Shown here piece after piece: positions 14,551 through 42,200 of a stretch of 49,614 nucleotides of DNA; position 1 is the stretch's first letter; each line of letters begins with the position of its first letter. The translations under genes and the position numbers were made by a program. The DNA lies in contig JACQRD010000067.1 in NCBI GenBank assembly GCA_016206675.1, positions 1 to 49,614 of the forward strand, in the 5' to 3' direction. The stretch comes from Candidatus Omnitrophota bacterium. GTDB taxonomy: Bacteria; Omnitrophota; Gorgyraeia; Aquiviventales; Aquiviventaceae. A model generated the notes under the pieces. It saw only the letters and a list, made by a program, of their open reading frames with translations. It did not search any database and was not told the origin of the DNA.

Positions 14551-14690
14551 TCCCACCACCTGCGCCGGCTTGCCTCCGGCAAGCCAGGAAGCCACGGCGA
14601 GCAGATTATATCCTTTGGGCCTGTGGCTTCCGCACGGCGCCTCAGGGCGCAAAACCCAGAGAACGCCGTAAGGCGCAGGTGGTGGGATGA
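14547..14690 (+). repeat. palindromic junction element E3 (interior apparently flipped relative to E1/E2)
   Basis: Perfect 17-bp arms 14550-14566 ATCCCACCACCTGCGCC and 14672-14688 GGCGCAGGTGGTGGGAT. Left ATGA 14547-14550 holds the PolX stop; right ATGA 14687-14690 holds the era start. Confidence 0.9.
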
Positions 14691-15613
14691 GCAGCGCCGC
14701 CCCGGCCGGCTTCCGCTGCGGCTATGTGAGCCTCATCGGGCGGCCCAACGTGGGCAAGTCGACCATCCTCAACGCGCTGCTGGGGGAGAAGGTGGCGATC
14801 ATCTCTCCGAAGCCACAGACGACCCGGCAGCGGATTCTCGGCGTGCTGACTCGTCCTGAGGCCCAGGTGATGTTTCTCGATACGCCGGGGCTGCACAAGC
14901 CGGAGCACACATTAGGCCGCTACATGGTCGAGGTGGCCAAGGCCGCCATTGAAGAAGCGGACGTGCTGGTCGTGATCATCGACGGGCGCGCGGGCATCAC
15001 GGCGGAGGATGAGCGGGTGTTCTCCTCCGTCAAGAACGCCCTGCGCGAGGATGGGCGCAAGCGGCCGGTCCTGCTGGCCATCAACAAGGTGGACATCGCC
15101 AGCAAACCGAAACTCCTGCCGCTGCTGGAGCGCTGTGCCAAGCTGGGCATCTTCGATGACTGCATTCCGATTTCGGCGACGACGGGCGACCAGCTCAAGA
15201 TTCTCCTGAAGGAGATCGTCGCGCGCCTGCCGGAGGGGCCCCGCTGGTATGAGCCGCAACAGCGCACCGACCAGACGCGCGAGCAGATGGTCTCGGAGCT
15301 CATCCGCGAGCAGGTGCTCGCCGCCACGCGGCAGGAGGTGCCCCATGCCGTCGCCGTGCTGATCGACGAGCTCGAAGACCGGGATAAGGTGACCTCCATC
15401 CGGGCCACGATCCTGGTTGAGCGCGATGGGCAGAAGGCCATTGTGATCGGCCGGGGCGGAATGATGCTCAAGCAGATCGGGCAGGAGGCGCGCCGGCAGC
15501 TGGAGCGGCTGCTGGGCCGCAAGGTCTTCTTGGGGCTCTGGGTGAAGGTCGCCGAAGGCTGGCGCAGTGATGAACGCATCCTGCGCCAGCTGGGCTACCT
15601 CTCCGGATCGTGA
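14687..15613 (+). CDS. era: GTPase Era
   Basis: 308 aa. G1 GRPNVGKST, G3 DTPG, G4 NKVD, C-terminal KH domain (VERDGQKAIVIGRGGMMLKQIG). Confidence 0.93.
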   Translation: MSSAAPAGFRCGYVSLIGRPNVGKSTILNALLGEKVAIISPKPQTTRQRILGVLTRPEAQVMFLDTPGLHKPEHTLGRYMVEVAKAAIEEADVLVVIIDGRAGITAEDERVFSSVKNALREDGRKRPVLLAINKVDIASKPKLLPLLERCAKLGIFDDCIPISATTGDQLKILLKEIVARLPEGPRWYEPQQRTDQTREQMVSELIREQVLAATRQEVPHAVAVLIDELEDRDKVTSIRATILVERDGQKAIVIGRGGMMLKQIGQEARRQLERLLGRKVFLGLWVKVAEGWRSDERILRQLGYLSGS

Positions 15614-22391: not shown

Positions 22392-24518
22392 TCAGACCGG
22401 CCAGAGGCGGCTTTCCAGCTCCTGCAGGGAGGCCACAAGCGCAAAACTGCCCTGGGTCGGATACTGCTCCAACACCTCCCCGTGGCTGATCAGCCTCAGC
22501 GTAACGTGCAGCCATGCCTGCGCGGTCGGACGCAGCAGATGCAGCGGGGCTTGCAGCTCGATCACCCGGTCAAAGGCGCATGGGACTTCCGCCTCCCCCA
22601 GCCGGGCCGTGAGCCGTCCGCTCTCGTACGTCGCCTGCAGCCGCACGGCCGTGGAAAACTCGAACTCCAGCGTCCAGGAGGCCAGCTGCGTGCGCAACGA
22701 TGGATCAACATCCACGCGCAGATACAGGGCGTCAGCATTCAGCCCGTACAAGAGCCCCTGAAGATGTTGGGTGCCGCGGTGGATGGCGGCGTACTGCTGC
22801 CTGAGATCCACCCGCCCCGCGTAGAGCCACTCGTAGTAGGAGGTTTCCCGCCCGTCAATGACCGGCTCAATCGGACCGGTCGGCTCATACAGCGGCTGCA
22901 CCAGATAGCGGCGGATCGGCCGGCTCAGCTCCTCCGGCGGCTTCAGCCCTGCGAAATGATAGGCATTCTCCAGATGCGTCCTGAACAGCCGGTCGAACTC
23001 CTCCGCCTGGGCGGTGAAATGGGTATCGCCGAACCACCACATCCAATCGCTGCCCTCGGCGGCGCCGAAGCTATCCCACGCTTTGGCGTACGCCGAATCC
23101 TCCCTGCTCTTTGCCGCCAGCGCCTCTCGGACCGCCCCCAACTGCAGCCATGCCGCATTTTTCTCTTCATGGCCGACCCAGGTGGCGAAATTGCCGTCGA
23201 TCCATGAACCGCTGAAAAGCGGCGGCAGTGAGGGCTCACCCGCTGGAAACTGCTTAAGAAATTCGCTCACCGTGACGCAATGAAACCGCCCATCGGCGGC
23301 CAGCGCCTCATAGAGACGCGTGAGAAACTCGTGGCCGTCCTCCGCGTAGAACTCCCAGGCGTTCTCCCCGTCAAGAATGATGCTGACCAACCATGGCTGC
23401 TGGGCGTTGCGCGCCTGCTTATAAATTACCTCGAGGCGTTTCAGAAAATCAGCAACGGCCGAGGGAGCTTCCCATTGACTATAGACAAAGCCGATCAGAT
23501 CAGAGAGCTCCCGATCGCGAAACACGATGGAGAGATTGTCTGTCTGGCGCTTCAGGAGATGGGGGCGATACAGCAGTGACGCGTCTCGAGATGTCTTGAG
23601 AGTGCGCCAGAGGATCGCCTCATCGGTGGCGATCCAGCGCACCCCGGCCTCAATGGCGAGCCCGACCACCTCCTCGCTCACACTGCCTTCCGGCGGCCAC
23701 ATCCCGCGGGCCGTCCTGCCGAAAGCCTGCTCGTGGCGGCGCAACCCCTGCTGCAACTGCCAGCGCGCGTCCTCCGGATGCCGAAACGCCACCTCAGGCA
23801 GCGGCAGCGACGGCAGGGCCACCCGTCCCGCATTGGTGTCGCAGACCAGCGGCAGAATGGGATGGTAGTAGGGCGAGGTGGTGAGCTCGATCTGGCCGCG
23901 CTCTGCCGCCTGTCGATAGGCCGGGATCACCTGGCTCAGGAGAGCGAGGTGCGCGGCCAGCACCGCCTCCTTCTCCTCTTCGGTGAAGTGGGCGCCTTTG
24001 GCCTCCAGCTTGGCCAGCCCCGCGTCCTGGCGGCGCAGCCAGGGGTCGATCCAGGCCAGGTTGAACCACACCTGCAGATCGCGGAAGTCTGCCGGCTTAA
24101 AGCGCCTCAGCACCGCGGGCCACTCCCCTTCCCGCACCTGATGGCCCCGCTTGGCGAGCAGATCATGGTAGCGCGGGTAGGGGCGGATCATCCGCTCGTG
24201 ATGCGCCAGAAAAAACCACTGGAGGATGAACTTCTGCTCCTCAGCCGTCAACTCTTCAGCCTTCTTTCTGGAGAGCTCCAGGAAACGATCGCTGTGGTTC
24301 TTCGGCGGCAGGTACTCCTCGAGCTGATCCAACAGCGATGGTACGACGTTGAAGGTCTGATGGATGGCCGGGAAGCCTTCAAGGCGCTTGACCATGTCCA
24401 GATAGTCCTTCGTGGCGTGCAGCCGCGCCCAAGGCATGGAGCACTCGCCCGTGCGCAGATTGCGGTAATAGGGCTGGTGCATGTGCCAGATGAAAGATAC
24501 ATAGAGTGGATGAGGCAT
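22392..24518 (-). CDS. glycoside hydrolase family 57 protein (alpha-amylase / glucanotransferase-like)
   Basis: 708 aa. N-terminal LYVSFIWHMHQPYYRN, typical of GH57, and a large C-terminal region. Confidence 0.85.
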   Translation of the reverse strand: MPHPLYVSFIWHMHQPYYRNLRTGECSMPWARLHATKDYLDMVKRLEGFPAIHQTFNVVPSLLDQLEEYLPPKNHSDRFLELSRKKAEELTAEEQKFILQWFFLAHHERMIRPYPRYHDLLAKRGHQVREGEWPAVLRRFKPADFRDLQVWFNLAWIDPWLRRQDAGLAKLEAKGAHFTEEEKEAVLAAHLALLSQVIPAYRQAAERGQIELTTSPYYHPILPLVCDTNAGRVALPSLPLPEVAFRHPEDARWQLQQGLRRHEQAFGRTARGMWPPEGSVSEEVVGLAIEAGVRWIATDEAILWRTLKTSRDASLLYRPHLLKRQTDNLSIVFRDRELSDLIGFVYSQWEAPSAVADFLKRLEVIYKQARNAQQPWLVSIILDGENAWEFYAEDGHEFLTRLYEALAADGRFHCVTVSEFLKQFPAGEPSLPPLFSGSWIDGNFATWVGHEEKNAAWLQLGAVREALAAKSREDSAYAKAWDSFGAAEGSDWMWWFGDTHFTAQAEEFDRLFRTHLENAYHFAGLKPPEELSRPIRRYLVQPLYEPTGPIEPVIDGRETSYYEWLYAGRVDLRQQYAAIHRGTQHLQGLLYGLNADALYLRVDVDPSLRTQLASWTLEFEFSTAVRLQATYESGRLTARLGEAEVPCAFDRVIELQAPLHLLRPTAQAWLHVTLRLISHGEVLEQYPTQGSFALVASLQELESRLWPV

Positions 24519-24520
24519 TA

Positions 24521-24553
24521 GTGACAGGTGACAGGTGACATGTGTCAGGTCAA
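24521..24553. repeat. tandem heptamers GTGACAG x3 followed by degenerate or inverted units
   Basis: GTGACAG GTGACAG GTGACAT GTGTCAG GTCAA, ending 2 nt from the GH57 start codon. Confidence 0.7.
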
Positions 24554-24560
24554 GACATTA

Positions 24561-24598
24561 ACAAAACAGCCCCCTGGCTCTTGCGAACCAGGGGGCTG
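24561..24598 (-). terminator. rho-independent terminator of the porin-like gene
   Basis: The minus strand reads CAGCCCCCTGG-ttcgcaagag-CCAGGGGGCTG followed by TTTTGT, 19 nt after the stop at 24617. Confidence 0.75.
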
Positions 24599-24616
24599 GG
24601 AAATCACGAACCAAAC

Positions 24617-26062
24617 TTAGAACTTCACGCCAACCGTCGTGACAAGCTCCTGCGCCACGGCGTCATACGGCTTTCGGAACACATTCCCAGGGAAGAAGAC
24701 CCCGTGAATCACACCGAAGGTGACATCCGGCGTATAGTGGTAGGTCACGATCGTGTCCCACTCGGTTCCGAGGAAGCTCTTTCGCTTAGACTGGGTGGTT
24801 CCATCCAGCGCGCGCGGCCGTAAGCCGTCGTCCGCAATGAACCATGTCAAGCGCGGAGCCACCTCAAGATCTTCGGTCGGCTTGACGCTCCCGTACACGG
24901 ACAACTGGTGCTGGTTTGTGACCGATGGTGTACAGACGTTACCAGCACCTGTCGTACACGCCTGGTCGACCGGATAGAATGCCCCGGCTTGAAACTCACG
25001 CAGCGCGGTGGTGAAATAGCCGCGAGCGATCGGGTCCCACCCCGTGACCGCGCCATCGACATCTTTGCCGGTCCAGAAGATCCACTCGGCACCCAGCTTC
25101 GGCGTCATCGCCACGTCCTTGGCGGTGTACTCAACCCCAAAGTCACCTGCCCATGCTTGGTGGCGGTCGCCGGTCGCAAGGCCGGTGTAGTTTGTTCCAT
25201 CACGAGCGCGAACACCGAACTGGTAGGCCAGTTCTCCGTACAGATAGACTCCCTCAACCGGTGCGGCACTGCCACGAACGCCCAGCGTGCTGACATTGGC
25301 GTGCTGAACAGCCAAGTTAGCAGCCGGTGTATTGCTGCGGTCGCGCTTGTTCAAGAAATATGTTTCAATTTCAGCGTTGGCCGCATCAAACCGTGTACCG
25401 AGGTTGACACCGGTGAGGTCGTTGTCATCCGCAATTCCAACCGTATTTTCCTCTAGCTTGATATAGACGGCATCAACGGTCAATGGCAAGTCGACAGCCG
25501 CCGCGCCTTGGAAATCCAACGTCAATCGCGCGCCATCGAACGCCGTAAAATCAGTAAACTCATCAGCGGCGAGGGAACCCAACAGTTCACCGATGAGTCC
25601 GGCATGCGGAATTAATGAACTCCCCAGCACAAAGCCTCGGCCCCACACGATGGGTTGACGACCGAGGGTCACCGTCAAGGGAGAAAAGAACAAATCTTTC
25701 AGCTTCACCCAGGCTTGACTGACAGCAAAATCGTTGTTGTCACTATTGGTTTGGTAATCCCCAAGAACTAACTCGTTGGCCAGCCGAATGCCTGCCGACA
25801 CGTTGTCGGTCATATCCGCGTTGATGTTCAGACCTGTCGTCGTCTGAATAAACCGGTCGTGGTCATCCAGATCAGACGGCTGAGTATCACTGATGTCATT
25901 GCCATCCCGCAAGTCGAGGTTGCTCCGGATGAAGGCGCGGGTTGTGATGTCACCCCCCACCCGGACGTTCTGCGTCTCTGCAAAGCTGGGCATCGCTGTG
26001 GCCGCCATGCCCATGGCGAGCAATGCCAGAAGGACTGCGCTTCGGAGCGTAGCCTTCCCCAT
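24617..26062 (-). CDS. outer-membrane beta-barrel (porin-like) protein
   Basis: ATG 26062 lies 7 nt after AAGGAGG. Signal peptide MGKATLRSAVLLALLAMGMAATAMPSFA. Alternating beta-strand pattern, aromatic-rich, C-terminal ...TVGVKF. Confidence 0.6.
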   Translation of the reverse strand: MGKATLRSAVLLALLAMGMAATAMPSFAETQNVRVGGDITTRAFIRSNLDLRDGNDISDTQPSDLDDHDRFIQTTTGLNINADMTDNVSAGIRLANELVLGDYQTNSDNNDFAVSQAWVKLKDLFFSPLTVTLGRQPIVWGRGFVLGSSLIPHAGLIGELLGSLAADEFTDFTAFDGARLTLDFQGAAAVDLPLTVDAVYIKLEENTVGIADDNDLTGVNLGTRFDAANAEIETYFLNKRDRSNTPAANLAVQHANVSTLGVRGSAAPVEGVYLYGELAYQFGVRARDGTNYTGLATGDRHQAWAGDFGVEYTAKDVAMTPKLGAEWIFWTGKDVDGAVTGWDPIARGYFTTALREFQAGAFYPVDQACTTGAGNVCTPSVTNQHQLSVYGSVKPTEDLEVAPRLTWFIADDGLRPRALDGTTQSKRKSFLGTEWDTIVTYHYTPDVTFGVIHGVFFPGNVFRKPYDAVAQELVTTVGVKF

Positions 26063-26225
26063 CGACTGACCTCCTTGTTGTGCGTCCCCACCCTGCAACG
26101 TACACATCCGAACGCTTGGTGTCCCCAGACTTCAACGGTTAAGTGTCAAGGAATCCCACGTAACTGCTGTGTTGTTCCTCCCCTTTCCCGGGAGCCTGAG
26201 CACACCTCCCCTCAAGGTTTCGCTT

Positions 26226-26330: not shown

Positions 26331-26404
26331 TGCCCCAGCGCCGATTCGAACGGCGGACACGCGGTTTAGGAAACCGCTGCTCTTCCATACTGAGCTACTG
26401 GGGC
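26331..26404 (-). tRNA. tRNA-Arg (anticodon CCU)
   Basis: The reverse complement folds as a 74-nt cloverleaf: acceptor GCCCCAG/CTGGGGC, D arm GCTC-AGTATGGAA-GAGC, anticodon arm GCGGT-TTCCTAA-ACCGC, variable GTGTC, T arm CGCCG-TTCGAAT-CGGCG, discriminator A. No encoded CCA. Followed by CTTTTT. Confidence 0.93.
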
Positions 26405-26405
26405 G

Positions 26406-27323
26406 TCAGCGTTTGGACTTTCCATTGCGCATCTTTCCATCGACCATCCGTCTTTTTTCGGCGCCCATCTTCTCTGCGGTACTCTTCCGCGCATCGTCTT
26501 TTATCTTCTGATCTGTTTCTTCTGTCGCGATGAGGGCGCGGAGCTTGCGCATGGCGGCCACCTCGATCTGGCGCACGCGCTCGCGCGTGATGCTGAAAAA
26601 TTTCGCGGTTTCGCCCAGGGTGCGGGAAATGCCGTCATCCAGCCCGTAGCGCAGCACCAGCACCCGCCGCTCGCGCTCGTTCATCTTCTGCAGCAGCGCG
26701 TCGATGCGCTCATGCTGGAGAAAGCGCGTGATCTCCTCCTGCGGGGAGTGGCCGCTCTCATCCTCCAGCAGGTCGATCATCTCGGTCTCCCCTTCCTCGC
26801 CCACCGGCGTTTCGAGGGAGGTGGTCTGCGCCGAGGTCACCAGCTCTTGCAGGCGCTCGATGCGCTCCACCGGCAGGCGCATCCGCCGGGCGAGTTCCAT
26901 GGCGCTCGGACGGCGGCCGAGCTTCTGCGACATCTCCTCGGTGATCCGCTTGAACTTGGAAATCAGCTCCGTCATGTAGACCGGAATGCGCACGGTTTTG
27001 CCCTGGTTGGCGATGGCGCGCGTGATGTACTGGCGGATCCACCAAGCACCGTAGGTGGAGAAGCGAAACCCTTTTCGGGGATTGTACTTGGTCACCGCCT
27101 TCATCAGGCCGAGGTTGCCTTCTTCGATCAGATCGAGCAGCGGCACGCCGAGGTGGGAGTAACGCTTGGCGATGTTGATGACCAGCCGCAGGTTGGAGAG
27201 CGTCATCTGCCGCTTGGCCACCCGGTCGCCCTTCCTGATCTTCCTGGCGAGCTCAATCTCCTGCTTGGCCGTCAGGAGCGGGATGGACTTGATATCCTTG
27301 AGATAGGAACGAATAGGATCCAT
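26406..27323 (-). CDS. RNA polymerase sigma factor, sigma-70 family (RpoD-like, no region 1.1, basic C-terminal tail)
   Basis: ATG 27323 gives MDPIRSYLKDIKSIPLLTAKQE. Region 2 DLIEEGNLGLMKAVTKYNP...FSTYGAWWIRQ. Region 4.2 TLGETAKFFSITRERVRQIEVAAMRKLR. Track start 27536 translates the heptamer repeat. Confidence 0.88.
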   Translation of the reverse strand: MDPIRSYLKDIKSIPLLTAKQEIELARKIRKGDRVAKRQMTLSNLRLVINIAKRYSHLGVPLLDLIEEGNLGLMKAVTKYNPRKGFRFSTYGAWWIRQYITRAIANQGKTVRIPVYMTELISKFKRITEEMSQKLGRRPSAMELARRMRLPVERIERLQELVTSAQTTSLETPVGEEGETEMIDLLEDESGHSPQEEITRFLQHERIDALLQKMNERERRVLVLRYGLDDGISRTLGETAKFFSITRERVRQIEVAAMRKLRALIATEETDQKIKDDARKSTAEKMGAEKRRMVDGKMRNGKSKR

Positions 27324-27328
27324 CGTTA

Positions 27329-27402
27329 GCACACAGCACACAGCACACAGCACACAGTGAAGACGCTCTTGCTGTCTGCTGTCCGCTGTCTGCTGTCTGC
27401 TG
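27329..27402 (-). repeat. heptamer-array hairpin (plus strand: CACACAG x4 ... CTGTCTG x4-5)
   Basis: Arms 27329-27357 and 27371-27402, loop 27358-27370. Each heptamer pairs 6/7; the seventh position is G opposite G in minus-sense RNA. Fills the ppdK stop to sigma start gap. Confidence 0.85.
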
Positions 27403-27405
27403 GCG

Positions 27406-30117
27406 TCATGTCCTTCTCTCGCGGACGACGGCTTGGGCAGCGGCCAGGCGGGCGATCGGCACGCGATACGGCGAGCAGGACACATAGTCCATGCCCACCC
27501 GGTGGCAGAACTCAATGGAGGAGGGCTCGCCGCCATGCTCGCCGCAGATGCCCACCTTCAGCCCCTTGCGCGCCTTGCGGCCCTTGGCGATGCCCAACTG
27601 GATCAGCTGGCCCACGCCCTCCTGATCGAGCTTGGCAAAGGGGTCGGCCGGCAGGATATCTTCCTTCAGGTAGTGCGGCAGGAACTTGCCGATGTCATCC
27701 CGTGAAAAACCGAAGGTCATCTGCGTCAGGTCGTTGGTGCCGAAGCTGAAGAATTCGGCTTCCTTGGCGATGACATCCGCCACCATGGCCGCGCGCGGCA
27801 CCTCGATCATGGTGCCGAGGAGGTATACCAGCTTCACCTTGTAGCGCTCAATCGTCTTCTTGGCGACCTCATCGATAACCTGCTTCGCCGCCCGGAATTC
27901 GTTCGGATGGCCGACCAGCGGGACCATCACTTCGGGCACGATCTTCACTCCGTCCCGCGCCAGCTCGCAGGCGGCCTCAAAGATGGCCTGTGCCTGCATG
28001 TCGTTGATCTCCGGGTAGGTCAGCCCTAAGCGGCAGCCGCGGTGGCCGAGCATCGGGTTGATCTCATGCAGGCTATTGATCGTCTGCCGCAGGACCTTGA
28101 GGTCGATCCCCAGCTGCTTGGAGAGCTTCTCCTGATCCTCTGGATCGTTCGGCAAGAACTCATGCAGGGGCGGATCCAGCAGCCGGATCGTCACCGGCAG
28201 CCCTTTCATCACTTCGAAGAGGCCCTTGAAGTCCTCCTTTTGGAAGGGCGGCAGCTTGGCCAGCGCCGCCTTGCGCGCCGCCACATCGCGCGCCAGGATC
28301 ATCTCGCGCACCACCGGCAGCCGCTCCTCGCCGAAGAACATGTGTTCGGTGCGGCAGAGCCCGATGCCCTCCGCGCCGAATTCGCGGGCCACCTTTGCAT
28401 CCTGCGGGGTGTCGGCGTTGGCCCGGATGCGCAGCCGGCGCACCTGATCGGCCCACTGCAGCAGCTGCTTGAAGCTGCCGGTCAGCTGCGGCTGAACCAC
28501 CGGCACCTCGCCCAGGATCACTTCCCCGGTTGAGCCATTGAGCGTGATGGCGTCCCCTTCCTTAATGACGCGGTCGCCCACCTTAAAGCACTTCGCGTCT
28601 TCTTCAACCGTAATGTCATTGCAGCCGACCACACAGCACTTGCCCATGCCTCGCCCTACAACTGCCGCATGGCTTGTCATCCCCCCGCGCGCGGTCAAAA
28701 TCCCTTGCGCGGCGGCCATGCCTTCGATGTCTTCGGGCGAGGTTTCCTCGCGCACGAGGATGACCTTCTCCGCGCCGTCCTCGCTGAACTCCACCGCCCG
28801 GTGCGCCGTGAAGACGGCCTTGCCCACGGCGGCACCCGGTGAGGCCGGCAGCCCCTTCGCGATGACCTGCGGCTTGGCCCTGGGATCGATCATCGGGTGC
28901 AGCAGTTGGTCGAACTGCGCGGCGTTGATGCGCAGCAAGGCCTCGCGCTGCGAAATCAGCTTCTCCTTCACGAAGTCCACGGCGAACTGCACCGAGGCGC
29001 GGGCGTTGGCTTTGCCGGCGCGGCACTGGAGCATGTAGAGGGCGCCTTCCTCAACCGTAAACTCGATGTCCTGCACCTGCTTGAAGTACCGCTCCAGCCG
29101 CTGGCAGACCTTCCAGAGCTGCTCGTAGAGCTTGGGGAGCTCGGTCTTCAGCTCGGCCACCGGCTTGGGCGTGCGGATGCCGGCGACCACATCCTCCCCT
29201 TGCGCGTTGACCAGGTACTCGCCGTAGAAGACGTTCTCGCCGGTGCCCGGGTCGCGGGTGAAGCAGACGCCGGTCAAGGAGGTCGAGCCCATGTTGCCGA
29301 AGACCATCGACTGGATGTTGACCGCCGTGCCCAGCGAGTGCGGGATGTTGTTGAGGCGGCGGTAGATGTTAGCCCGCTCGTTGTTCCAGGACGTGAAGAC
29401 GGCGTTGACGGCCAGCGTCAATTGTTCCATCACATCTTCCGGAAAGTCGCTGCCCTTCTTGGCGCGGACGAGCTGCTTGTATTCCCCCACCAGCTGCTTC
29501 AGGGCTTCCGCCGGAAGCTGCGCATCCGTCTTGGCATTGAACTTCGCCTTCTTCTTCTGCAGGATCTCCTCAAACTGCTTGTGGTCGATCTCCAGCACCA
29601 CGTTGCTGAACATCTGGATGAAGCGGCGGTAGGCGTCGTAGGCGAAGCGGGGATTCTCGGTCTTCTGGGCGAGGCCCTCCGCCGTGCGGGAGTTCAGGCC
29701 GAGGTTAAGGATGGTGTCCATCATGCCGGGCATGGACACGGCCGCTCCGGAGCGCACCGAAACCAACAGCGGATTCTTGGGATCGCCGAAGCCCTTTTGC
29801 GCCACGGCCTCCAGCCACTTCAGTTTCTGCCGGAGTTCCGCCTCGAGCCCCTGCGGCCAGCGCCCGCCCAGCTCGTAGAATTTCCGACACACCTCGGTGG
29901 TGAGGGTCAGCCCGGGCGGCACCGGCACGCCCAGGTTGGTCATCTCCGCCAGGTTCGCCCCCTTGCCGCCGAGCAGCTGCTTCATGTCGGCGCGGCCGTC
30001 CGCCTTGCCCGCCCCGAAGACATAGATGAAGCGCGGCTTGCTCGCGGAGAGCTGGCCTGCCCTGCGGCGGGTCGCGGGGAAGCGACGGCGGGCTGTGGCA
30101 ACGGACGTCCGGCTCAT
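27406..30117 (-). CDS. ppdK: pyruvate, phosphate dikinase
   Basis: 903 aa. GGKGANLAEM ATP-grasp N-terminus, phosphohistidine motif GGMTSHAAVVGRGMGK, PEP-utiliser C-terminus. ATGA overlap with the glyS stop. Confidence 0.93.
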   Translation of the reverse strand: MSRTSVATARRRFPATRRRAGQLSASKPRFIYVFGAGKADGRADMKQLLGGKGANLAEMTNLGVPVPPGLTLTTEVCRKFYELGGRWPQGLEAELRQKLKWLEAVAQKGFGDPKNPLLVSVRSGAAVSMPGMMDTILNLGLNSRTAEGLAQKTENPRFAYDAYRRFIQMFSNVVLEIDHKQFEEILQKKKAKFNAKTDAQLPAEALKQLVGEYKQLVRAKKGSDFPEDVMEQLTLAVNAVFTSWNNERANIYRRLNNIPHSLGTAVNIQSMVFGNMGSTSLTGVCFTRDPGTGENVFYGEYLVNAQGEDVVAGIRTPKPVAELKTELPKLYEQLWKVCQRLERYFKQVQDIEFTVEEGALYMLQCRAGKANARASVQFAVDFVKEKLISQREALLRINAAQFDQLLHPMIDPRAKPQVIAKGLPASPGAAVGKAVFTAHRAVEFSEDGAEKVILVREETSPEDIEGMAAAQGILTARGGMTSHAAVVGRGMGKCCVVGCNDITVEEDAKCFKVGDRVIKEGDAITLNGSTGEVILGEVPVVQPQLTGSFKQLLQWADQVRRLRIRANADTPQDAKVAREFGAEGIGLCRTEHMFFGEERLPVVREMILARDVAARKAALAKLPPFQKEDFKGLFEVMKGLPVTIRLLDPPLHEFLPNDPEDQEKLSKQLGIDLKVLRQTINSLHEINPMLGHRGCRLGLTYPEINDMQAQAIFEAACELARDGVKIVPEVMVPLVGHPNEFRAAKQVIDEVAKKTIERYKVKLVYLLGTMIEVPRAAMVADVIAKEAEFFSFGTNDLTQMTFGFSRDDIGKFLPHYLKEDILPADPFAKLDQEGVGQLIQLGIAKGRKARKGLKVGICGEHGGEPSSIEFCHRVGMDYVSCSPYRVPIARLAAAQAVVRERRT

Positions 30118-32258
30118 GAGGGCTCCTGTTGTAAGACGGTAAGTTTCGAGAGGTCGGCAACCCGGTCAGTATACAACGCATGGATTGCGCGCATCAAGGC
30201 GAGCCGGTTGCGTTGCAGCGCCTCGTCGGGCACGTTGACCAGCACCTTGTCGAAGAACGTGTGCAGCGGCTCATAGAAGAGCTCTCCGAATTCTAGCGTG
30301 GCTTTGTCGTACAGGCGGTCGGTGATGAGCTTCGCGACCCGCTCCTTATGCTGATCGTACAACCGCCACAGTGCCTGCTCCGGCGGCTCCTTCAGCAGTT
30401 GCGGCTGCACCTGGCCGTCCGCACGCTTGGCCCCTTTGAGGATGTTGCGCGTGCGCTCGATGACCTTCGCGGCCTTCAGCAGCCCGGCCTGGCCGCTCAT
30501 CCGCTGGAGGGTGCGGATGCGGTCCATGGCATCGATCATATCTTCCCATGGACAGGCCAGCACAGCGTCAATACAGTCCGATGAAGGGGCCGGGGATGGC
30601 CAGTTGAAGGTGTAGAGTCTTTCTGCAAGGTAGCTGCGAACACGCTGTTGTACCTTCGCATCAGGTGGCTTTCCAGCAGCCGCCGACCATGCGTTGAACA
30701 GATTCTCAAACAACAGCGGTCGATGCGCAGCCCATGCCACTTCTATGATTCCTTGCGCGGCACGCCGAAGACCAAAAGGATCCTGATCTCCTGTCGGTTC
30801 GATGCCGATGCTAAAGTAACTCGCGAAGGTATCAAATTTGTCCAGGCTAGCTAGTGCAGAACCAATGAGGGTCTTGGGCATCTTACCAGCAAGTGGCAGG
30901 TAGTGCTCCTCGATTGCTTGACACACGGCGTCAGATTCACGATGGATTCTGGCGTAGTATTTCCCCATCACACCCTGCAAAGTCGGAAACTCCCTGACCA
31001 TAACGCTACCAAGGTCAGCCTTGGCAAGCTGGCTGGCCCGTTCAAGCTCTTTGGACTCTTGATTCGTCAGGTTCCACATCTTGCTAAGGTTTCTGCTCAT
31101 CTGGCAGAGGCGGTTGACCTTGTCCTGCACAGAGCCCAACTTTTCGTGGAAGGTGATTCCGGCAGCCTTGACGGCAAGCACGTTTAGTTGCTGTTTAGTG
31201 TCCTGCTCCCAGAACAACAAGCTATCCGCCAGGCGGGCGTTGAGGATACGCTCCACCACCGTGCGCACCTCCGACGGCTTGCCGGGCTTGCCGTCCAGGA
31301 TGGCGACGCAGCGCGGCAGCAGCTTCCCGTTGGCCTCAATGGCGAAAACGCGCTGGTGCTTGGCCATGCTGGCCAGCAGCACTTCGCGCGGCAGGACCAG
31401 ATAGCGCTTATCGAATTCGCCGACCAACGGCACCGGCTCTTCCGTCAAGAAGGTCACTTCCTCCAGCAGGCCGTGGCTGATCATCTCCGCCGCCGTGGTG
31501 CCGCGGAAGGCCTTGGCGGTTTTGGCCACCAGGCTGTCAATGACGGCGCGCCGCTGGCTTGGATCGAGGATCACCCCGACGCGCTTCAGCAGCTTGAAGT
31601 AGGATTCAATGGAGGAAACCGTCGCCCAGCGCAACTGCTGCGGCCGTCCCACGCGTGTCTTAGATTGGCCGGCGATCAAACCGAAGCGGCACGAAACCGC
31701 CTGCGCGCCATAGCGGGCCAGCAGCCAACGGATGGGCCGGGCGAAGCGCACGCCGCTGGCCTCCCAGCGCATACTCTTCGGCGCGCGCAGCTTTGTGATA
31801 AGCTGCGGCAGCAGGGCCGGCAGCAGCTTGACGGTCGGGGTGGTCGTGGGCGGCTTCATGAGGTAGACGTAGTCGCCCTTCGGCGTTGAGACGACTTTGG
31901 TGTGGCGGATGTCTCCGCCTTGCGACTTGAGGAAACCGAGCAGGGCCGGCGTGGGCTTGCCGGAGGCGTCGTAGGAGGCCTGCTTCGAGGGGCCGCGCAC
32001 CTCCTCGCCGGGCTGCTGTTGCACCGCGGAGAGCCCGCGCACGTGTAGCACCAACCGGCGCGGCGTGCCGTACGTCGCTGCCGAGTGGAACGCCAGGTGG
32101 TTGGCTTCACACAGCGTCTTGGCTTCCCGGTCGAGCTGTTCAATCAGCCCAGGCAGGTACGCCGCCGGCAGCTCCTCCGTCCCGATTTCAAAGAGAAGAT
32201 CAGCTGACCGCGAAGCTGGAGGTTGGAGGCTGGAGGCGGGAATGGATTTCTTTTTCAT
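30114..32258 (-). CDS. glyS: glycine--tRNA ligase beta subunit
   Basis: 714 aa. [12 protein letters not shown] near the N-terminus. The first ~20 codons ([18 protein letters not shown]) are read from a heptamer repeat arm. Confidence 0.9.
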
Positions 32259-32287
32259 CCAACTTCCAGCTGCTTGCTTCCAGCTTC
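32212..32287 (-). repeat. heptamer-array hairpin, GAAGCTG family, copy 1, spanning the glyQ stop / glyS start
   Basis: Plus strand: GAAGCTG GAGGTTG GAGGCTG GAGGCGG ... CCAACTT CCAGCTG CTTGCTT CCAGCTTC. Best hand register is 32212-32226 with 32259-32273 (15 nt, 2 mismatches). ATGA 32255-32258 lies at the loop edge. Confidence 0.8.
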
Positions 32288-33127: not shown

Positions 33128-33132
33128 AGGCA

Positions 33133-33909
33133 CTAGACCCGAGACCCGTGACTCGCGACCCGAGTCTCGGGTCTCGAGTCTCGAGTCCACCCAGCTAATG
33201 TCTTTAGCGGTCTATCCAGGCGCCAACGCAGGAACTCATCCAGCCGGCGGCGCAATCCTGGCAGCGCGTGAGCATCCAGGGCGATGGGCTGATCGCTCTC
33301 CGAGAGCCGCTCCAAGGTTTCCAACGTGCTGTGCAGCACCGGTTCGGCCTTCGGATCCTCGTGCAGACAGTTGGCGCACAGCAATCCGCCCTGCTGCGCG
33401 CTCCAGTAGCCGGCGTGATGCACCATCGCGCCACACCCGGTGCACTCATCCACCTGCGGCTGAAAGCCGGCCAGCCGCAGAAACCGCACGATGAAATGGG
33501 TCCGGATCATCGCGGGGTCGGATCCGGCCACGGCCAGATGCTCCAGCGCCGACTTCAGCAGCCGGTAGACCGCCGGCTGCGGCTCATTCAGCGGGACGAC
33601 CGTATCCACCAGATCGACGCACAGCGCAGCGCTGCGGGCGACCTCCAGTTCCTGCTGCAGTGCCGCCAGCGGAGCCAGCAGCTCGCATTGGCTGATGAGA
33701 TGGAGCTGGCTGGTGTGCGTGTCGTAGAAGACGATGCGGTTGACCGTCATCGGCTCCATGGCGCTGCGATGGCGGTTCGGCAGCTGGCGCAACCCCTTGA
33801 TGAGCCCTTTCAGCTTGCCGTAGCGGTCCGTCAGGCAGCTGACTACGACGCTGGTTTCACGGTAGAAATACCGGCGCAGGACGATGGCATCTGCTGCATG
33901 AATGCCCAT
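33133..33909 (-). CDS. recO: DNA repair protein RecO
   Basis: ATG 33909 gives [27 protein letters not shown]. Cys cluster CTGCG...CANC. The C-terminal ~17 residues are encoded by a repeat. Confidence 0.85.
33135..33188 (-). repeat. heptamer-array hairpin, GACCCGA/GTCTCGA family, copy 1
   Basis: AGACCCGAGACCCGTGACTCGCGACCCGAGTCTCGGGTCTCGAGTCTCGAGTCC with a perfect central hairpin GACCCGA-gtc-TCGGGTC. About 95% identical to 33914-33967. Confidence 0.85.
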
Positions 33910-33911
33910 TG

Positions 33912-34427
33912 TTAGACCCGAGACCCGTGACTCGTGACCCGAGTCCCGAGTCTCGAGTCTCGAGTCCAACGCTTGGTATCTTCCGAACAGTTCGCCAATA
34001 GTCTATCTTCCAACTTTCGCATTTCTCGTTGCTGGGTGAGCGTGCGGTCGTCATGGCCGAGCCAGTGCAAAATGCCATGGACGACGTAGCGCGAGAGCTC
34101 CTGCGCGTACGACACGCCGTGGGCCTGGGCGTAGCGCTGCGCTTCCTTGGGTGCGACGAGCACCTCGCCGACAACCTGCCTGCGCCGTAGCGGCGCAGGC
34201 CAGCAGGTCGGCTCTCCCTCATACCGGAAACTGAGCACGTCGGTGGAGCGGTCGTGGCGCGTAAACCGGCGGTTGAGGCGGCGCATGCGCCCGGTGTCAA
34301 TGAAGGTGATGGCCAGCTCCCCGCCGCCACGGATCTTCAGCCGCCGCACCGCGGCGCGCGCCAGCTGTCGCATCCGGGCGGCGCTGACCGGGGCTTGCCG
34401 CTGGGCGTTGGTCACCCGCACCCGCAT
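33912..34427 (-). CDS. ybeY: rRNA maturation RNase YbeY
   Basis: HGILHWLGHDD zinc motif. The C-terminal tail TRDSRLGTRVTSHGSRV is encoded by a repeat. 1-nt TGATG overlap with phoH. Confidence 0.88.
   Translation of the reverse strand: MRVRVTNAQRQAPVSAARMRQLARAAVRRLKIRGGGELAITFIDTGRMRRLNRRFTRHDRSTDVLSFRYEGEPTCWPAPLRRRQVVGEVLVAPKEAQRYAQAHGVSYAQELSRYVVHGILHWLGHDDRTLTQQREMRKLEDRLLANCSEDTKRWTRDSRLGTRVTSHGSRV
33914..33967 (-). repeat. heptamer-array hairpin, GACCCGA/GTCTCGA family, copy 2
   Basis: AGACCCGAGACCCGTGACTCGTGACCCGAGTCCCGAGTCTCGAGTCTCGAGTCC, lying between the ybeY stop and the recO start. Confidence 0.85.
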
Positions 34428-35386
34428 CAGTGATGGTTGTGATTGATTTTGTCATAGGCGCTGATGATCGCCTGCACCAGCTCATGGCGTACCACGTCCT
34501 GCCCGCTGAAGAGCGCGAAGGCGATGCCGGGAATCTCCGCCAGGAGCGTCTGCACCTGGATCAGGCCGGAGGACTTCTCTGGCGGCAAGTCGATCTGCGT
34601 GACGTCGCCGGTCACCACGGCCTTCGAATCGAACCCGAGCCGGGTGAGGAACATTTTCATTTGCTCCGGGGTGGTGTTCTGTGCCTCATCCAGGACGATA
34701 AAGGAGTCGTTCAAGGTGCGGCCGCGCATGAAGGCCAGCGGGGCGACCTCGATGATGCCGCGGTCGAGATACCGCTGCACCATGTCCATCTCCATCATCT
34801 CGTAGAGCGCGTCATAGAGCGGGCGCAGGTACGGGTTGATCTTCTCGGCCATGTCGCCCGGCAGATAGCCGAGCCGCTCCCCCGCCTCCACCGCCGGCCT
34901 CGCGAGGATGATGCGGGAGACCTCTCCCTTCGTGAGGCTCTCCACCGCCATGGCCATTGCTAAGAAACTCTTCCCTGTACCAGCGGGCCCGATAGCGAAG
35001 ACAATGTCGTGCTTGCGCATGGCGTCCACGTAGGCCTTTTGCCCCGGCGTGCGCGGAATCACGAACCGCCGCTTGGAGGGCACCTCGATGCGCTCCTGGT
35101 ACATCTGGCGCAGCTGGACGAGCTTCGAGTCCTGCAGCGCTCGCAGCGCGTAGTCGACGTCTTCCCGGCGCAGCGGAGCACCCGAGCGCACAATGACCAG
35201 CAGATCGTCAAAGAGCCGCGCGGCCTTCGCGATGACCTCCGGCTGGCCGGCGATCTTCATCTCCTCGGCGCGCATGACGACCGAGACGCCGAGCACCTGC
35301 TCGATGCGCCGCAGATGCTGGTCGTGCTTGCCGAAGAGCGCTTGCGCTTCCTGCGCGCCGCGCAGCGTCACCGATTGCTCAGCCAT
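34427..35386 (-). CDS. phoH: PhoH-like ATPase
   Basis: 319 aa. Walker A GPAGTGKSFLAMAMAV, VLDEAQNTT, conserved PhoH C-terminus. Confidence 0.9.
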   Translation of the reverse strand: MAEQSVTLRGAQEAQALFGKHDQHLRRIEQVLGVSVVMRAEEMKIAGQPEVIAKAARLFDDLLVIVRSGAPLRREDVDYALRALQDSKLVQLRQMYQERIEVPSKRRFVIPRTPGQKAYVDAMRKHDIVFAIGPAGTGKSFLAMAMAVESLTKGEVSRIILARPAVEAGERLGYLPGDMAEKINPYLRPLYDALYEMMEMDMVQRYLDRGIIEVAPLAFMRGRTLNDSFIVLDEAQNTTPEQMKMFLTRLGFDSKAVVTGDVTQIDLPPEKSSGLIQVQTLLAEIPGIAFALFSGQDVVRHELVQAIISAYDKINHNHH

Positions 35387-35395
35387 CGCAATACG

Positions 35396-35472
35396 GAAGC
35401 TGGACGTTGGAAGCTAGAAGCTGGAACAAGCCATGCGTTCTTTCCAGCTTCCAGCCTCCTGCTTCCAGCTTC
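35396..35472 (-). repeat. heptamer-array hairpin, GAAGCTG family, copy 2
   Basis: GGAAGCT GGACGTT GGAAGCT AGAAGCT GGAAC ... TTCCAGC TTCCAGC CTCCTGC TTCCAGC TTC. Both ends are homologous to 32212-32287. Confidence 0.8.
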
Positions 35473-35480
35473 ATGAGTGA

Positions 35481-36041
35481 TTACTTCTGAAATACCGTGC
35501 CGCCATCCTCATCCGATGAGCCGCGCGAAACCTTGCCGCGGGGAATGGTGATGGTCATGCCCGCCCGCAGCCGGTTGGGATCGCCCTTCAGCAGCTCGCG
35601 GTTGGCCTCCAGCAGCCGAGGCCACTGGGTCGCCTTGCCGTAGACTTCCGGCTTGGCCGCGATCGACCAGAGCGACTCCCCCTTCTGGACGACGTAACTC
35701 TCCACAGGGCCGGCGGCCTCTTCGGCATCCTGCGACGGTGGTGCTCCCACGCGCACGGCGGAAGACTGGCGGGCGGATGGCGCAAGCGCGCCCGCGCCTG
35801 CAGACTTTTTCGGCTTGTAGAAGCTCGGGAGTTCAATGTCAGTTTCAATGATTTGGCGCGTGGTGCGCGTCTCGCCGGCCTCCGGCGGCGTGCCCAGCAA
35901 ATAGCCCCGGTTGCCGCCGGTCAGCTCCAGATCGACGCGCGGTACGTCGGTGACCCGTGTGGCTACGCGCGTCGGCGCCTTACACCCTGCAATTATGAAC
36001 ACGCCTGTCGCACTCAGAACTACAGCAGCCGCCCGATGCAT
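35481..36041 (-). CDS. LysM-domain lipoprotein
   Basis: ATG 36041 lies 5 nt after AAGGAGG. Lipobox FIIAGC. C-terminal LysM YVVQKGESLWSIAAK...RLRAGMTITIP. Confidence 0.75.
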   Translation of the reverse strand: MHRAAAVVLSATGVFIIAGCKAPTRVATRVTDVPRVDLELTGGNRGYLLGTPPEAGETRTTRQIIETDIELPSFYKPKKSAGAGALAPSARQSSAVRVGAPPSQDAEEAAGPVESYVVQKGESLWSIAAKPEVYGKATQWPRLLEANRELLKGDPNRLRAGMTITIPRGKVSRGSSDEDGGTVFQK

Positions 36042-38771: not shown

Positions 38772-38790
38772 CGGCTAACACCCCGTGATC

Positions 38791-38866
38791 ATTGCGGATT
38801 GCGGAATGCGGATTGCGGATTTGGAAAGCCGAAAATCCGAACTCCGCAATCCGAAATCCGCAATTA
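38791..38866 (-). repeat. heptamer-array hairpin (ATTGCGG units ... TCCGCAA units)
   Basis: ATTGCGG ATTGCGG AATGCGG ATTGCGG ATTTGGA aagccgaaaa TCCGAAC TCCGCAA TCCGAAA TCCGCAA TT, lying between the HU stop and the hisS start. Confidence 0.85.
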
Positions 38867-39222: not shown

Positions 39223-42200
39223 TCAAGCGTCATCCTCACTGAAGTTGCCGACACCGCTCAGACGCGGCCTGGCAAAGCCGCCCGGTGGCTTCGGCGGCAG
39301 TCGCTTGATGGTAATGGCCGACTCCCCGAGCAGGCGGATGAGCTCATCCAGCAAATCAGGCGTGGGATCCACCTGAAACTCTTCGGAGAGTTTCAGTTGC
39401 ATCGGCGCCTGGCCGGGCATTTCCACCCGCAGATAGACCGGCACCGCTCCTGGAAACCGGGCCAGCAGCTCCTTCAGCTGCTCCAACTTCTGCTTCTCTG
39501 CGCCCTGGACGAGAAATTCGATTGATTGTGCCAGCTTCCCCGTCCCTTGCGCCATCGGCACGATCTGCTGGGCGATCAGCCGCGGCTGGTCATCGCGCAT
39601 CGCCACGCGCCCCTCCACCAGCACCACCGCGTTGGGAATCAGCTGCCCGGCCAGCTGCTGGTAGCTGCCGGGGAAGATGAGCGTTTCCACTTCTCCCTCA
39701 AGATCTTCCAGCACGCACACCGCCATCTGCTCGTTGGTCTTCTTGGTCGTGGTGCGCTTGATTTTCGTTAGCATGCCGCCCACCGTCACCACGCTGCCCT
39801 CCGCGGTATGGAGCAACTGCCTCGACGTGGCGCTCGCCAGCAGCCGCATCGACTGGGCGTAGCGCGCCAACGGATGGCCGGAGACGTAGAAACCGAGCAG
39901 CTCCTTTTCAAACGCGAGCTTCTGGCTCTCCGGCCAGTCGCGCGCATGGCCGGTGGCCGCTTCCGGCTCCTGGCCGGCCTGCGGGGTTTCGCCGGCGAGC
40001 ATATCGAAGAAGGTCAGTTGCCCCTTGGCGAGGTCTTTCTGCTCGCTGGTGGCTTCCTCCATCGCCTGATCGAGCGCGGCCAGCAGCGCAGCACGCGGCA
40101 GGCCCATGCTGTCGCAGGCACCCGCTTTGATGAGGCTCTCGCACACCTTCCGGTTGGCCAGGCGCAAGTCGATATGGCGGCACAGCTGCGCCATCGTCTG
40201 GAAGCGGCCTGCCTGCGCCGAAGCGGCTTCGGCAGGCGGGCTGGCCTGGCGCGCCTGGAGGATCGATTCGATCGCGCCCATCCCGACGTTCTTGATGACG
40301 CCGAGGCCGCAGCGGATCGTCCGCGCGTCCACGGCGGTGAAGGCCGCCTGGCTCTCATTGACATCCGGCGGCAGGATGGTCAGCCCCATGCGCTTGGCTT
40401 CATCCAGATACACGACCAGCTTGTCGGTGTTGCCCATTTCACTGGTGAGCAGCGCCGTCATGAACTCCACCGGATAGCGCGCCTTCAGGTACGCCGTCCG
40501 GAAGGAGATCATCGCGTACGCCGCCGAATGAGAATTGTGGACGGCGATGCCATTCGCCACGAAATTGTGCGTCCCATCAATCGTCAGATCGTACGTCTCC
40601 GCCGTGCCGCAAGGCTCAATAGACCGGATGCGGTCCCAATAGACATCGGACGTCGCATAGCGAAGCAGTTCCGGTGATTCGAAATACTCGGCAAGCCGCT
40701 GGATGGTGGAGCGGCGAAATCCGCGCTTGGTGGGGTGGGCTCCACCCACAAACTCTTTCATCGACACGCCGGACCGTCGCTCAAGCTCGGGCCAGGTCGT
40801 GCCCGCCTGCTGCTTGGCCTCGCGAACAATGGTTTTGATGCTCGCGGGAATCACGTCCTTGCTCGTTTGATCATCGCGAACACATTCGTAGTGGCGCCGA
40901 AGCCCCCGGAGGGCCGCCTGCCGGCCCATCAGATGCGGACACACGCGATCGATAAACCGAAGCACCTGCTCCTTCCCGGAGGTATACACAGCATACCCTG
41001 GCCGGATCCCGCCACGATAGCGGAACCGTTTTGACTTCAGCGAACTCACAATGCCTAACCGCCGCAGCAATTGCTGCACCTGTGCGGCCAACTGCCGTGA
41101 GGAGGTGGCATAGAATGGGAGAGGCGTCCCTGTTGCGCCCCAGAGATACCCATCGCCGCTCCATAAGCGGCCCAGAAACAACGCCAGATGCTCTTCGGAC
41201 TGTTCGAACATGACCGCCGGCACGAACTTCTCGGTGGATGCGACCCAGGCCAGCCCCAGCGATTCGATCCACTGCCTGATGCCTGACCGCGCCACCGGCG
41301 AGCTCACGTCGTGAGTGCCGGCGCGCCGGTAGCCGGAGCGCCCCTTATTCCAAGGCGCGTGCCCCTTCACAAAGACCGTTGAGAGTCCTGTGCCAGTGTA
41401 GACTTCAAATAGCTTCCCGCGCTGGGTGACACGCGGCACCGTGCTCGGAAACCGCTGCGCGGCTGCGACAAAGTCGTCAATAAACTCCCGGTCATTGTTA
41501 TAGACATAGACGCCGCTCGGATGGCAGGTGTTGCCTTCTGAAAGGATGGCTGCGAGCGCGATGATCTCATGCGGCTCCAAGGCATGCTTCGTTCGGGCAG
41601 TGACCGTCTTCAGATGCCTGGGAACGGCGACAAAGCTGCCGGCGCGAAGGTCTCGCAGCTCCTTCCACCCCTCCACGGTCAAAAAGGGGTGATTGTCCGT
41701 CACGGTGATCTCGTGTCCCAAATGGGTCGTCACGCGGAAGACCGGTTTGCGGCCATTCGACACCACGTCAACCACATCGCGCTTCACAAGCCGCAGTTGC
41801 TCATCAACTGAGAGCGTCCGCAGCGGACGCCGGGCGCGATGCAACGATTCAACCGTCACCACCGCACCCGTATCGGCATCAAGAATCTCCGTCTCGCCCA
41901 CAACGCACTTGTTGAAGCCGTAGCCCGCGAAGTGCTCCATCAGGTCGAAGGTGCGGCTAGCCACCCGCTCGGTCACCCCGTTCTTGCGGCAGCCCTCGAC
42001 GAACGCCTTGCGCTGGGCCTCCATCACATCGGCGATCTTCTTGCCCATCGCCCGCCGCAGCAGGTCGGCTTGCGCCATGCTGAAACCACCCAAGTCACTC
42101 GCAATCCGCATAACTTGTTCCTGATACACCACAATGCCGTAGGTTGCTTTCAAAATGGGCTCAAGTCTTGGATGTTCATATTTGACAGAGATCTGGCCGT

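Follow-up and report, generated by a model that had tools for sequence, protein, structure and literature searches.

The glyQ/glyS junction

The 49,614-nt window analysed here, the whole stretch taken from Omnitrophota contig JACQRD010000067.1 (GCA_016206675.1), carries on its minus strand an operon in the order phoH, ybeY, recO, glyQ, glyS, ppdK. We examined an imperfect hairpin with arms of tandem 7-nt units that lies across the junction of glyQ and glyS, the genes of the two subunits of glycine--tRNA ligase (GlyRS). The two genes overlap by ATGA (Table 1). An earlier note on this stretch had placed the hairpin inside coding sequence, with one arm translated as the tail of GlyQ, the AUGA following, and the other arm translated near the N-terminus of GlyS, so that both reading frames contain parts of a repeat element. 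Our analysis agrees with all of this. The glyQ 3' end reads ...CCT GAA GCT GGA AGC AAG CAG CTG GAA GTT GGA TGA, and the glyS 5' end reads ATG AAA AAG AAA TCC ATT CCC GCC TCC AGC CTC CAA CCT CCA, continued by GCT TCG CGG TCA GCT GAT CTT CTC TTT GAA ATC GGG.

A TGA in the glyS frame is located at 32288-32286, 10 codons 5' of the ATG. Its T at 32288, just ahead of the 5' arm, completes the 5'-terminal TGA of the repeat family, and both copies of the family in the window have a T before them, giving TGAAGCTGG. As no ATG, GTG or TTG is found in the glyS frame from this TGA to LLFEIG, the ATG of the overlap is the sole canonical start of GlyS. An in-frame ATT at codon 6 was considered as an alternative start and rejected, as it is non-canonical and nothing demands it. 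An assembly or frameshift artefact was rejected as well, both open reading frames (ORFs) being intact and the ATGA overlap being found also in nine independent metagenome-assembled genomes (MAGs). A programmed frameshift at A AAA AAG after the ATG, leading to a GlyQ-GlyS fusion, was rejected because the glyQ stop comes before the site.

Comparison with solved and curated proteins (PDB, NCBIfam) delimits the repeat-encoded parts. The homology of GlyQ stops at residues ~277-283 of 290 and that of GlyS begins at residues 18-21, the latter as expected from the earlier note, which had put the canonical N-terminus about 20 residues into the protein with no other start codon between. Stand-alone beta chains align to the GlyS of the window from their own residue 5-6. 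In the fused GlyRS of PDB 7LU4, a linker of ~30 residues lies between the matching homology end-points, where the window has 28 residues. A linker of similar length in the fused enzyme indicates that the extra GlyQ and GlyS residues are tolerated, and the arm-encoded residues are plausibly harmless. At its 3' end, glyS overlaps ppdK by another ATGA, and this junction is hairpin-free. The ppdK ORF as called has ~30 N-terminal residues ahead of the conserved PPDK start.

The junction hairpin exceeds chance expectation. In the mRNA sense, the 90-nt segment 32205-32294 folds at -34.6 kcal/mol (z = -3.70, equalled by 0 of 200 shuffles). The antisense fold is stronger (-50.0 kcal/mol, z = -5.70), as A.C mismatches of the mRNA turn into G.U pairs on that strand. 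The mRNA-sense stem is interrupted; from the outside in, an outer stem of 10 bp is followed by an 8x8 internal loop, a stem of 6 bp, a bulge of 1 nt, two pairs, a 5-nt bulge and an apical helix. In the minimum free energy (MFE) structure this helix has 5 bp (UGGAU/AUCCA), which pair the A and U of the AUG, and closes a loop of 9 nt with the ATGA at its 5' edge.

Heptamer-arm hairpins in the window and in the clade

A sister copy of the hairpin is located upstream of phoH, between the stop codon of a LysM-domain gene (35481-35483) and the phoH ATG, and is truly intergenic, as the earlier note had seen. The two copies have their arms in common and their loops not, and the ATGA lies in the unshared loop. 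The ATG in the loop is the only canonical start of GlyS, but the suggestion that the repeat itself gives the stop of glyQ and the start of glyS is unsupported, since the ATGA belongs to a site-specific loop and not to the arms. A 16-mer pattern of the family (at most 3 mismatches) had 12 matches in the window against 0.93 expected, all within these two hairpins, and the junction copy is degenerate relative to its intergenic sister.

Beyond what the earlier note had described, the junction is a local case of clade-wide heptamer-arm hairpins at gene boundaries, and ybeY and recO of the same operon also carry arm-encoded tails. The window contains 13 period-7 tracts in nine elements, and periods 5, 6 and 8-11 give 0-1; at least eight of its hairpins have tandem 7-nt arms (Table 1). 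Most arrays form complementary inverted pairs, and apparently solo arrays are a minority. The two GACTCGA copies are near-identical over ~57 nt and are read in the same frame, resulting in 18-residue C-terminal tails of RecO and YbeY (WTRDSR.ETRV.SHGSRV). The ybeY stop codon TAA lies at the 3' end of its hairpin, 2 nt ahead of the recO ATG. The hairpin between the convergent genes has the stop codons of both at its edges, and its fold has one mismatch per heptad, C.C on the plus strand and G.G on the minus strand.

Table 1. Genes and heptamer-repeat features of the window, with the glyQ/glyS junction first.
Feature	Position	Strand	Basis or remark
Whole imperfect hairpin, 76 nt, GAAGCTG/CCTCCAG heptamer family	32212..32287	minus	folds, period-7 tract, family matches
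5' arm GAAGCTGGAAGCAAGCAGCTGGAAGTTGG	32259..32287	minus	encodes GlyQ E281-G290 (last 10 codons)
3' arm CCTCCAGCCTCCAACCTCCAGCTTC	32212..32236	minus	encodes GlyS A8-S16 (ASSLQPPAS)
ATGA, glyS start 32258-32256 overlapping glyQ stop 32257-32255	32255..32258	minus	sequence reading and fold
glyQ, glycine--tRNA ligase alpha subunit, 290 aa	32255-33127	minus	homology and PDB/NCBIfam comparison
glyS, glycine--tRNA ligase beta subunit, 714 aa	30114-32258	minus	homology and PDB/NCBIfam comparison
ppdK	27406-30117	minus	
recO	33133-33909	minus	
ybeY	33912-34427	minus	
phoH	34427-35386	minus	ATG at 35386
Intergenic sister copy of the GAAGCTG/CCTCCAG family, upstream of phoH	35396-35472	minus	arms in common, loop different
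GACTCGA-family hairpin, recO reads through it	33128..33189	minus	stop TAG near 3' end, 5 nt before glyQ ATG
GACTCGA-family hairpin, ybeY reads through it	33913..33969	minus	tail WTRDSRLGTRVTSHGSRV
Two period-7 tracts, GGGTTCT ... AACCCTG	5793-5843		between enoyl-CoA hydratase and 2-hydroxyacid dehydrogenase genes, upstream of the latter
CTGTCAC heptamer array	24517-24551	minus	ends 2 nt ahead of GH57 start codon
84-nt hairpin, AGCACAC x4 / GCTGTCT x5	27324-27407		between convergent ppdK and ORF 26712-27329
ATTGCGG-family element	38789-38864		
Apparently solo array, GCTGTCT/GCTGTTT	48180-48214		no complementary partner in fold

As the unit length of 7 has no common factor with the codon length of 3, a heptamer array that lacks stop codons can be read through in any of the three frames. 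It encodes the same 7-residue repeat in each of them, and adding or removing a single unit changes the frame. Openness in every frame makes absorption into coding sequence easy. The heptamer units were stop-free in 93 of 103 cases against 79% expected, which is only a mild enrichment and was not used as evidence.

To find the same junction in relatives, genome contigs were scanned with a GlyS alignment, which gave 80 loci; a scan with a single GlyS protein had given none. The close clade comprises 31 of these loci (L006-L036) at 51-62% identity, and four more were found by exact protein look-up; the best non-self GlyS match is 64% identical, and the GlyS homologues place the source in Omnitrophota. 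The N-termini of ~120 GlyS homologues carry extensions of 0-55 residues, many of which resemble translated heptamer hairpins (e.g. GSRLKAQGK...SLQPRALS, NPKSKIQNPKS and HAPRPTPHAP). The distance from GlyQ LDARG to GlyS EIGTEELP is 124-148 nt where there is no insert (L002, L037, L040, L041, L064, L068), 190-250 nt in most close-clade genomes and 203 nt in the window. These inserts form hairpins of heptamer periodicity, with unit sequences that differ among the genomes; the tract detector recognised them in 19 of 32 loci, and ~20 were seen by eye. In the hairpin-free relatives, 3-11 GlyQ residues follow ...YL and 5-8 GlyS residues precede LL.EIG. These short tails and heads (L002, L004, outgroups) are non-homologous to those of the window, contrary to the homologous ends by which, according to the earlier note, the absorbed repeat would be refuted.

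The hairpins occur in two layouts. In the first, found in the window and in L007, L010, L011, L013, L018, L019, L027 and L034, the genes overlap by ATGA, and the GlyQ tail and the GlyS head each contain one array. Numerical checks confirmed the ATGA overlap in 10 loci, the window among them, and in 8 of these it lies within the hairpin loop. L018 has no such loop because its two arrays (GlyQ tail, ACACAGC; GlyS head, AAAATCC) are not complementary, and in L016 the overlap is centred in a small palindrome that is not a heptamer hairpin. In the second layout (L001, L006, L009, L012, L014, L017, L026, L033), the ancestral 14-nt overlap (ATG-N8-stop, as in the hairpin-free L002) is kept, or is 29 nt long in L009, and the entire hairpin lies in the N-terminal extension of GlyS. 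A stop/start overlap is retained at this junction in every relative examined. A single origin (monophyly) of the ATGA-in-loop layout was considered and is unsupported, as the neighbour-joining tree of GlyS is star-like and the layouts are interspersed in it.

The flanks of L013 and L014 are ~90-95% identical, yet their cassettes (L013:3380-3600 and L014:3366-3612) are wholly different, which indicates fast cassette turnover, as do the interspersed layouts on the GlyS tree. L013 has the GAGACAG family in the first layout and L014 the CGGAATG family in the second, and the difference spans everything between GlyQ ...LYLE/D and GlyS ADLL, that is, family, layout, stop and start. In L018 and L020 the junction carries two non-complementary arrays of different families, located on both sides of the overlap or after it, suggesting that the arrays on either side can arise or be swapped independently. 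Separately, L004 has an extra small ORF (L004:2249-2572, 107 aa, no Pfam match) between glyQ and glyS and no hairpin, and L008 and L028 have an insert of 450-480 nt at the same position.

Hairpins were also found at other boundaries of the operon, in ~8 loci at ybeY/recO, ~11 at recO/glyQ and ~9 after ppdK, and at glyS/ppdK in no relative surveyed. Many of them fit tightly into the boundary. They have the upstream stop at their 5' base (9 of 10 after ppdK and the layout-2 junctions), near their 3' end, or in their loop. In the first of these arrangements the 5' end of the hairpin is at the stop or at most ~13 nt from it. The candidate starts, where callable nearby, are mostly ~-10 to +20 nt from the 3' base. 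Automated mapping of stops and starts around the hairpins was noisy because GC-rich DNA holds long spurious ORFs, and the clear patterns alone were used. Hairpin-free relatives have the same operon with boundaries formed by ATGA, 1-nt or 14-nt overlaps or 3-11-nt gaps.

A limited set of heptamer families is common to the genomes (AATCCGC, ACAGGAG, AAAATCC, ACACAGC, AAGGCTG/AGCCTCC and others). One site carries different families in different genomes, and within one genome the copies have common arms and different loops, as at three sites of L013. The pattern of the GAAGCTG family of the window was found in at least 120 metagenome contigs; among the matches listed were 59 clear hairpins with variable loops, and in at least 14 of these 59 an incoming ORF stops 1-8 nt ahead of the family motif. 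Period-7 tracts occur at 3.4 per 10 kb in the close clade (34 loci), 2.6 in the window, 0.11 in distant Omnitrophota and 0.22 in other phyla. The close clade has 90 period-7 tracts, and each of the periods 5, 6 and 8-11 at most 7. No target-site duplications beside the heptamer hairpins were evident by eye.

Of 20 junction hairpins, 18 fold less stably in the mRNA sense than in the antisense, as do 10 of 13 recO/glyQ hairpins. Those after ppdK reverse the trend, with the sense fold stronger in 7 of 10. The weaker sense folds at translated sites could reflect either a tuned structure or the erosion of one that is a burden.

Start accessibility and explanations of the hairpin

Opening energies were computed for 16 starts, namely glyS, three others adjacent to hairpins (phoH, recO, glyQ) and twelve more. 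Opening positions -18 to +12 of the glyS start costs 19.0 kcal/mol, among the highest of the 16, and opening -3 to +6 costs 7.0 kcal/mol; neither figure is below those of other starts. The phoH, recO and glyQ starts cost 19.5-23.0 kcal/mol, and 7 of the 12 others open at 6.5-14.4 kcal/mol. The earlier note had the start codon at the edge of the loop, where it would stay accessible. The position at the edge is correct, but with the A and U of the start codon base-paired and the opening this costly, the claimed accessibility is unsupported.

A Shine-Dalgarno sequence is present in few genes, and glyS has no clear one. The closed start region, the scarcity of Shine-Dalgarno sequences and the stop/start overlap preserved in the relatives together point to termination-reinitiation at glyS. 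GlyS is probably made mostly through translational coupling, from ribosomes that have ended glyQ at the UGA of the AUGA. Bacterial GlyRS is an alpha2beta2 enzyme that requires equimolar subunits, and coupling suits such an enzyme.

With moderate confidence when all its parts are taken together, we favour the explanation that the junction hairpin is a clade-specific heptamer-arm palindrome absorbed at a spacer-less junction, that GlyS is produced by termination-reinitiation, and that the elements spread in a REPIN-like manner. The hairpin is a somewhat degenerate copy of a palindromic class with tandem 7-nt arms, here of GAAGCTG units on the 5' side and CCTCCAG units on the 3' side, and with site-specific loops. 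In this GC-rich Omnitrophota lineage, such hairpins occupy the boundaries of compact operons (ybeY-recO-glyQ-glyS-ppdK). As glyQ and glyS ancestrally overlap, there is no spacer between them, and the element lies in the sole tolerant sequence, formed by the non-conserved C-terminal tail of GlyQ and an N-terminal extension of GlyS of ~15 residues, with the ATGA in the loop. A ribosome that ends glyQ would already have unwound the 5' arm, would stand on the AUGA and could restart on glyS, while a free 30S subunit would have to pay ~19 kcal/mol to open the start. At such a cost, the hairpin would keep or tighten the coupling of the alpha and beta subunits rather than expose the start. The elements themselves may spread or be replaced by REPIN-like copying or conversion. 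There is good support for what the element is; its function we infer.

Several results weigh against this explanation. About 12 of the 32 relatives, including the nearest (L002), have no hairpin at the junction, which shows that it is dispensable, and the non-complementary arrays of L018 and L020 show that pairing of the arms is not obligatory. Some hairpin-free starts are also costly to open (polX 19.3, the Alginate_exp-family gene at 24617-26107 19.9 and aspS 17.1 kcal/mol). The weaker sense folds at 18 of the 20 junctions could mean that the RNA structure is a burden under erosion and not a device. Finally, no transposase or RAYT-like Pfam match was found among the 30 of ~41 window ORFs scanned, which represent only 49.6 kb of the genome.

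Some of these results are shared by the strongest rival, in which the hairpin is a selfish or neutral passenger in the only spot that tolerates it, with no role in glyQS expression and with the coupling being ancestral and persisting despite it. We regard this as the less likely account, although it is still a serious one because the sense-fold weakening fits erosion as well as tuning. The absence of the hairpin from so many relatives, the rapid turnover seen in L013/L014 and the unpaired arrays of L018 and L020 are all expected of a passenger, as are the degenerate state of the junction copy relative to its intergenic sister and the weakening of sense structure where the hairpins are translated (18 of 20 junction hairpins vs. 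3 of 10 after ppdK). On the other hand, ~60% occupancy of this tiny orthologous junction and recurrence at three other boundaries would need strong targeting or selection. In the window and several relatives, moreover, the stop and start lie at the stem base or in the loop, a pattern for which the automated survey is noisier.

A bolder alternative, which we consider rather improbable as a whole, is that the heptamer hairpins are more than selfish DNA and form a dedicated intercistronic reinitiation system of the lineage. Each hairpin would then join an upstream stop and a downstream start at the base or loop of one stem, so that ribosomes, in a genome poor in Shine-Dalgarno sites, could cross from cistron to cistron by termination-reinitiation. 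A putative enzyme dedicated to the 7-nt arrays would lay them down and exchange them around loops that are specific to each site. A second repeat family of the window, ATGA-TCCCACCACCTGC ... GCAGGTGGTGGGA-TGA, has a matching geometry, its two arms holding the stop and the start, respectively.

It is very unlikely that the hairpin acts as a REP-like 3'-end stabiliser, processing site or partial attenuator at the end of the glyQ cistron, setting the stability or polarity of the operon. The closeness of the hairpins to the upstream stop, both after ppdK and at layout-2 junctions and in the metagenome copies listed, would fit such a role. So would the fact that a separate canonical GC-rich terminator with a U-tract, on the minus strand after the Alginate_exp-family gene (~24567-24600), lies beside the CTGTCAC array, which indicates that the heptamer elements are distinct from intrinsic terminators in this genome. 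However, no U-tract follows the junction hairpin and it was not flagged as a terminator; transcripts cut or ending at this position would have a glyQ cistron that lacks its stop codon and would lose the glyS start, and the alpha2beta2 enzyme needs equimolar subunits.

Least probable of all is that the AUG is displayed in an open hairpin loop from which free ribosomes start glyS independently: the AUG at the 5' edge of the apical loop, the A-rich stretch after it (AAAAAGAAA) and the ATGA in the loop at 8 loci including the window would be in favour, but the MFE structure has the A and U of this codon base-paired, a 9-nt loop is small against the 30S footprint of ~30 nt, the opening costs are not below those of other starts, no clear Shine-Dalgarno sequence is present, and in the 8 layout-2 relatives the entire hairpin is downstream of the start.

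Known repeats and further features of the window

The element is best classed as a variant of the known kinds of palindromic repeats, and its clade-wide pattern is unusually clean. No account of heptamer-arm hairpins in Omnitrophota or Omnitrophica was found in the searchable full-text literature. The REP/REPIN (BIME) repeats of Enterobacteria and Pseudomonas are likewise dispersed short palindromes forming hairpins of 60-110 nt, with arms conserved among copies, variable spacers or loops and several families per genome, and they too are located at gene ends and between cistrons, giving hairpins in polycistronic mRNA. They are extragenic, whereas the junction, recO and ybeY copies lie in coding sequence, with other copies intergenic. 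The tandem 7-nt arms, the many copies translated as protein tails or heads and the occupation of one site by different families across genomes are further differences; no RAYT gene was seen in the 49.6-kb window, nor was a conserved GTAG-type cleavage motif shown.

Rickettsia palindromic elements (RPEs) are also palindromes inside essential genes that are translated into tolerated non-homologous segments. In the same way, GlyQ E281-G290 and GlyS ~8-16 are arm-encoded and missing in relatives without the repeat. RPEs are ~100-150 bp long, not heptamer-periodic, and inserted internally in genes. By this description the present element differs in being shorter, heptameric, and placed across the stop/start overlap of two genes in two frames.

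Junctions at which ATGA or TGATG overlaps are combined with an mRNA structure that masks the start resemble the present one in the overlap, the structured start and the heteromeric enzyme. Unlike there, the masking structure here is a dispersed repeat and not a locus-specific helix, and the coupling is one that we infer.

Cyanobacterial heptanucleotide repeats go by the name STRR. Intergenic heptamer repeats in general share with the present elements a unit of exactly 7 nt, lineage-specific abundance and a position near gene ends or just upstream of starts. They are mostly direct arrays, whereas the arrays here are usually inverted complementary pairs that form long hairpins and enter coding sequence. 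Such intergenic repeats have been described in cyanobacteria, in Xanthomonas (GGGAATC) and in Beggiatoaceae (TAACTGA), and a role in translation was proposed for the TAACTGA repeat (PMC4692102, PMC4679880).

The heptamer hairpins were also considered as intrinsic (Rho-independent) terminators and rejected, since no T-run follows the stem and none of them was flagged. An Rfam scan of the window found no family for the hairpins at the gathering threshold, known cis-regulatory RNAs such as the T-box included. A permissive scan gave two sub-threshold chance matches to miRNA precursors, on the GACTCGA hairpins. The sole match at the gathering threshold is a tRNA gene (26331-26404, minus strand).

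If the favoured explanation is true, dispersed hairpin repeats routinely turn into parts of essential proteins and into stop and start signals in one lineage, and a single orthologous junction offers a natural before/after series, from no hairpin through a hairpin within one gene to one split across two. The hairpins would then represent a strictly 7-nt-periodic class, with families across genomes and fast cassette replacement, that is apparently undescribed in the searchable literature. How such repeats arise, and whether they organise coupling where Shine-Dalgarno sites are few, would become testable, and the clade-wide pattern merits a genome-wide study. For the annotation of Omnitrophota MAGs it would be a warning that many terminal extensions are repeat-derived and that starts beside hairpins are easily miscalled.

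The second repeat family mentioned above is located on the plus strand at 6862-6993, 12689-12824 and 14546-14702. Its interior of ~95-105 nt between the ATGA-led left arm and the TGA-ended right arm is non-conserved. The left arm holds the TGA of the upstream gene and the right arm the ATG of the downstream gene; the downstream starts are those of polX at 12820, era at 14687 and a plus-strand ORF from ~6990. The arms resemble anti-Shine-Dalgarno and Shine-Dalgarno sequences, and the copy at 12685-12830 folds at -78 kcal/mol (z = -7.6). This family could be a start-masking coupling device or a miniature inverted-repeat transposable element with an ATGA target duplication. Elsewhere in the window, an intein that carries a LAGLIDADG homing-endonuclease domain is present in dnaE (39223-44148, minus strand), which encodes the DNA polymerase III alpha subunit (1641 aa).

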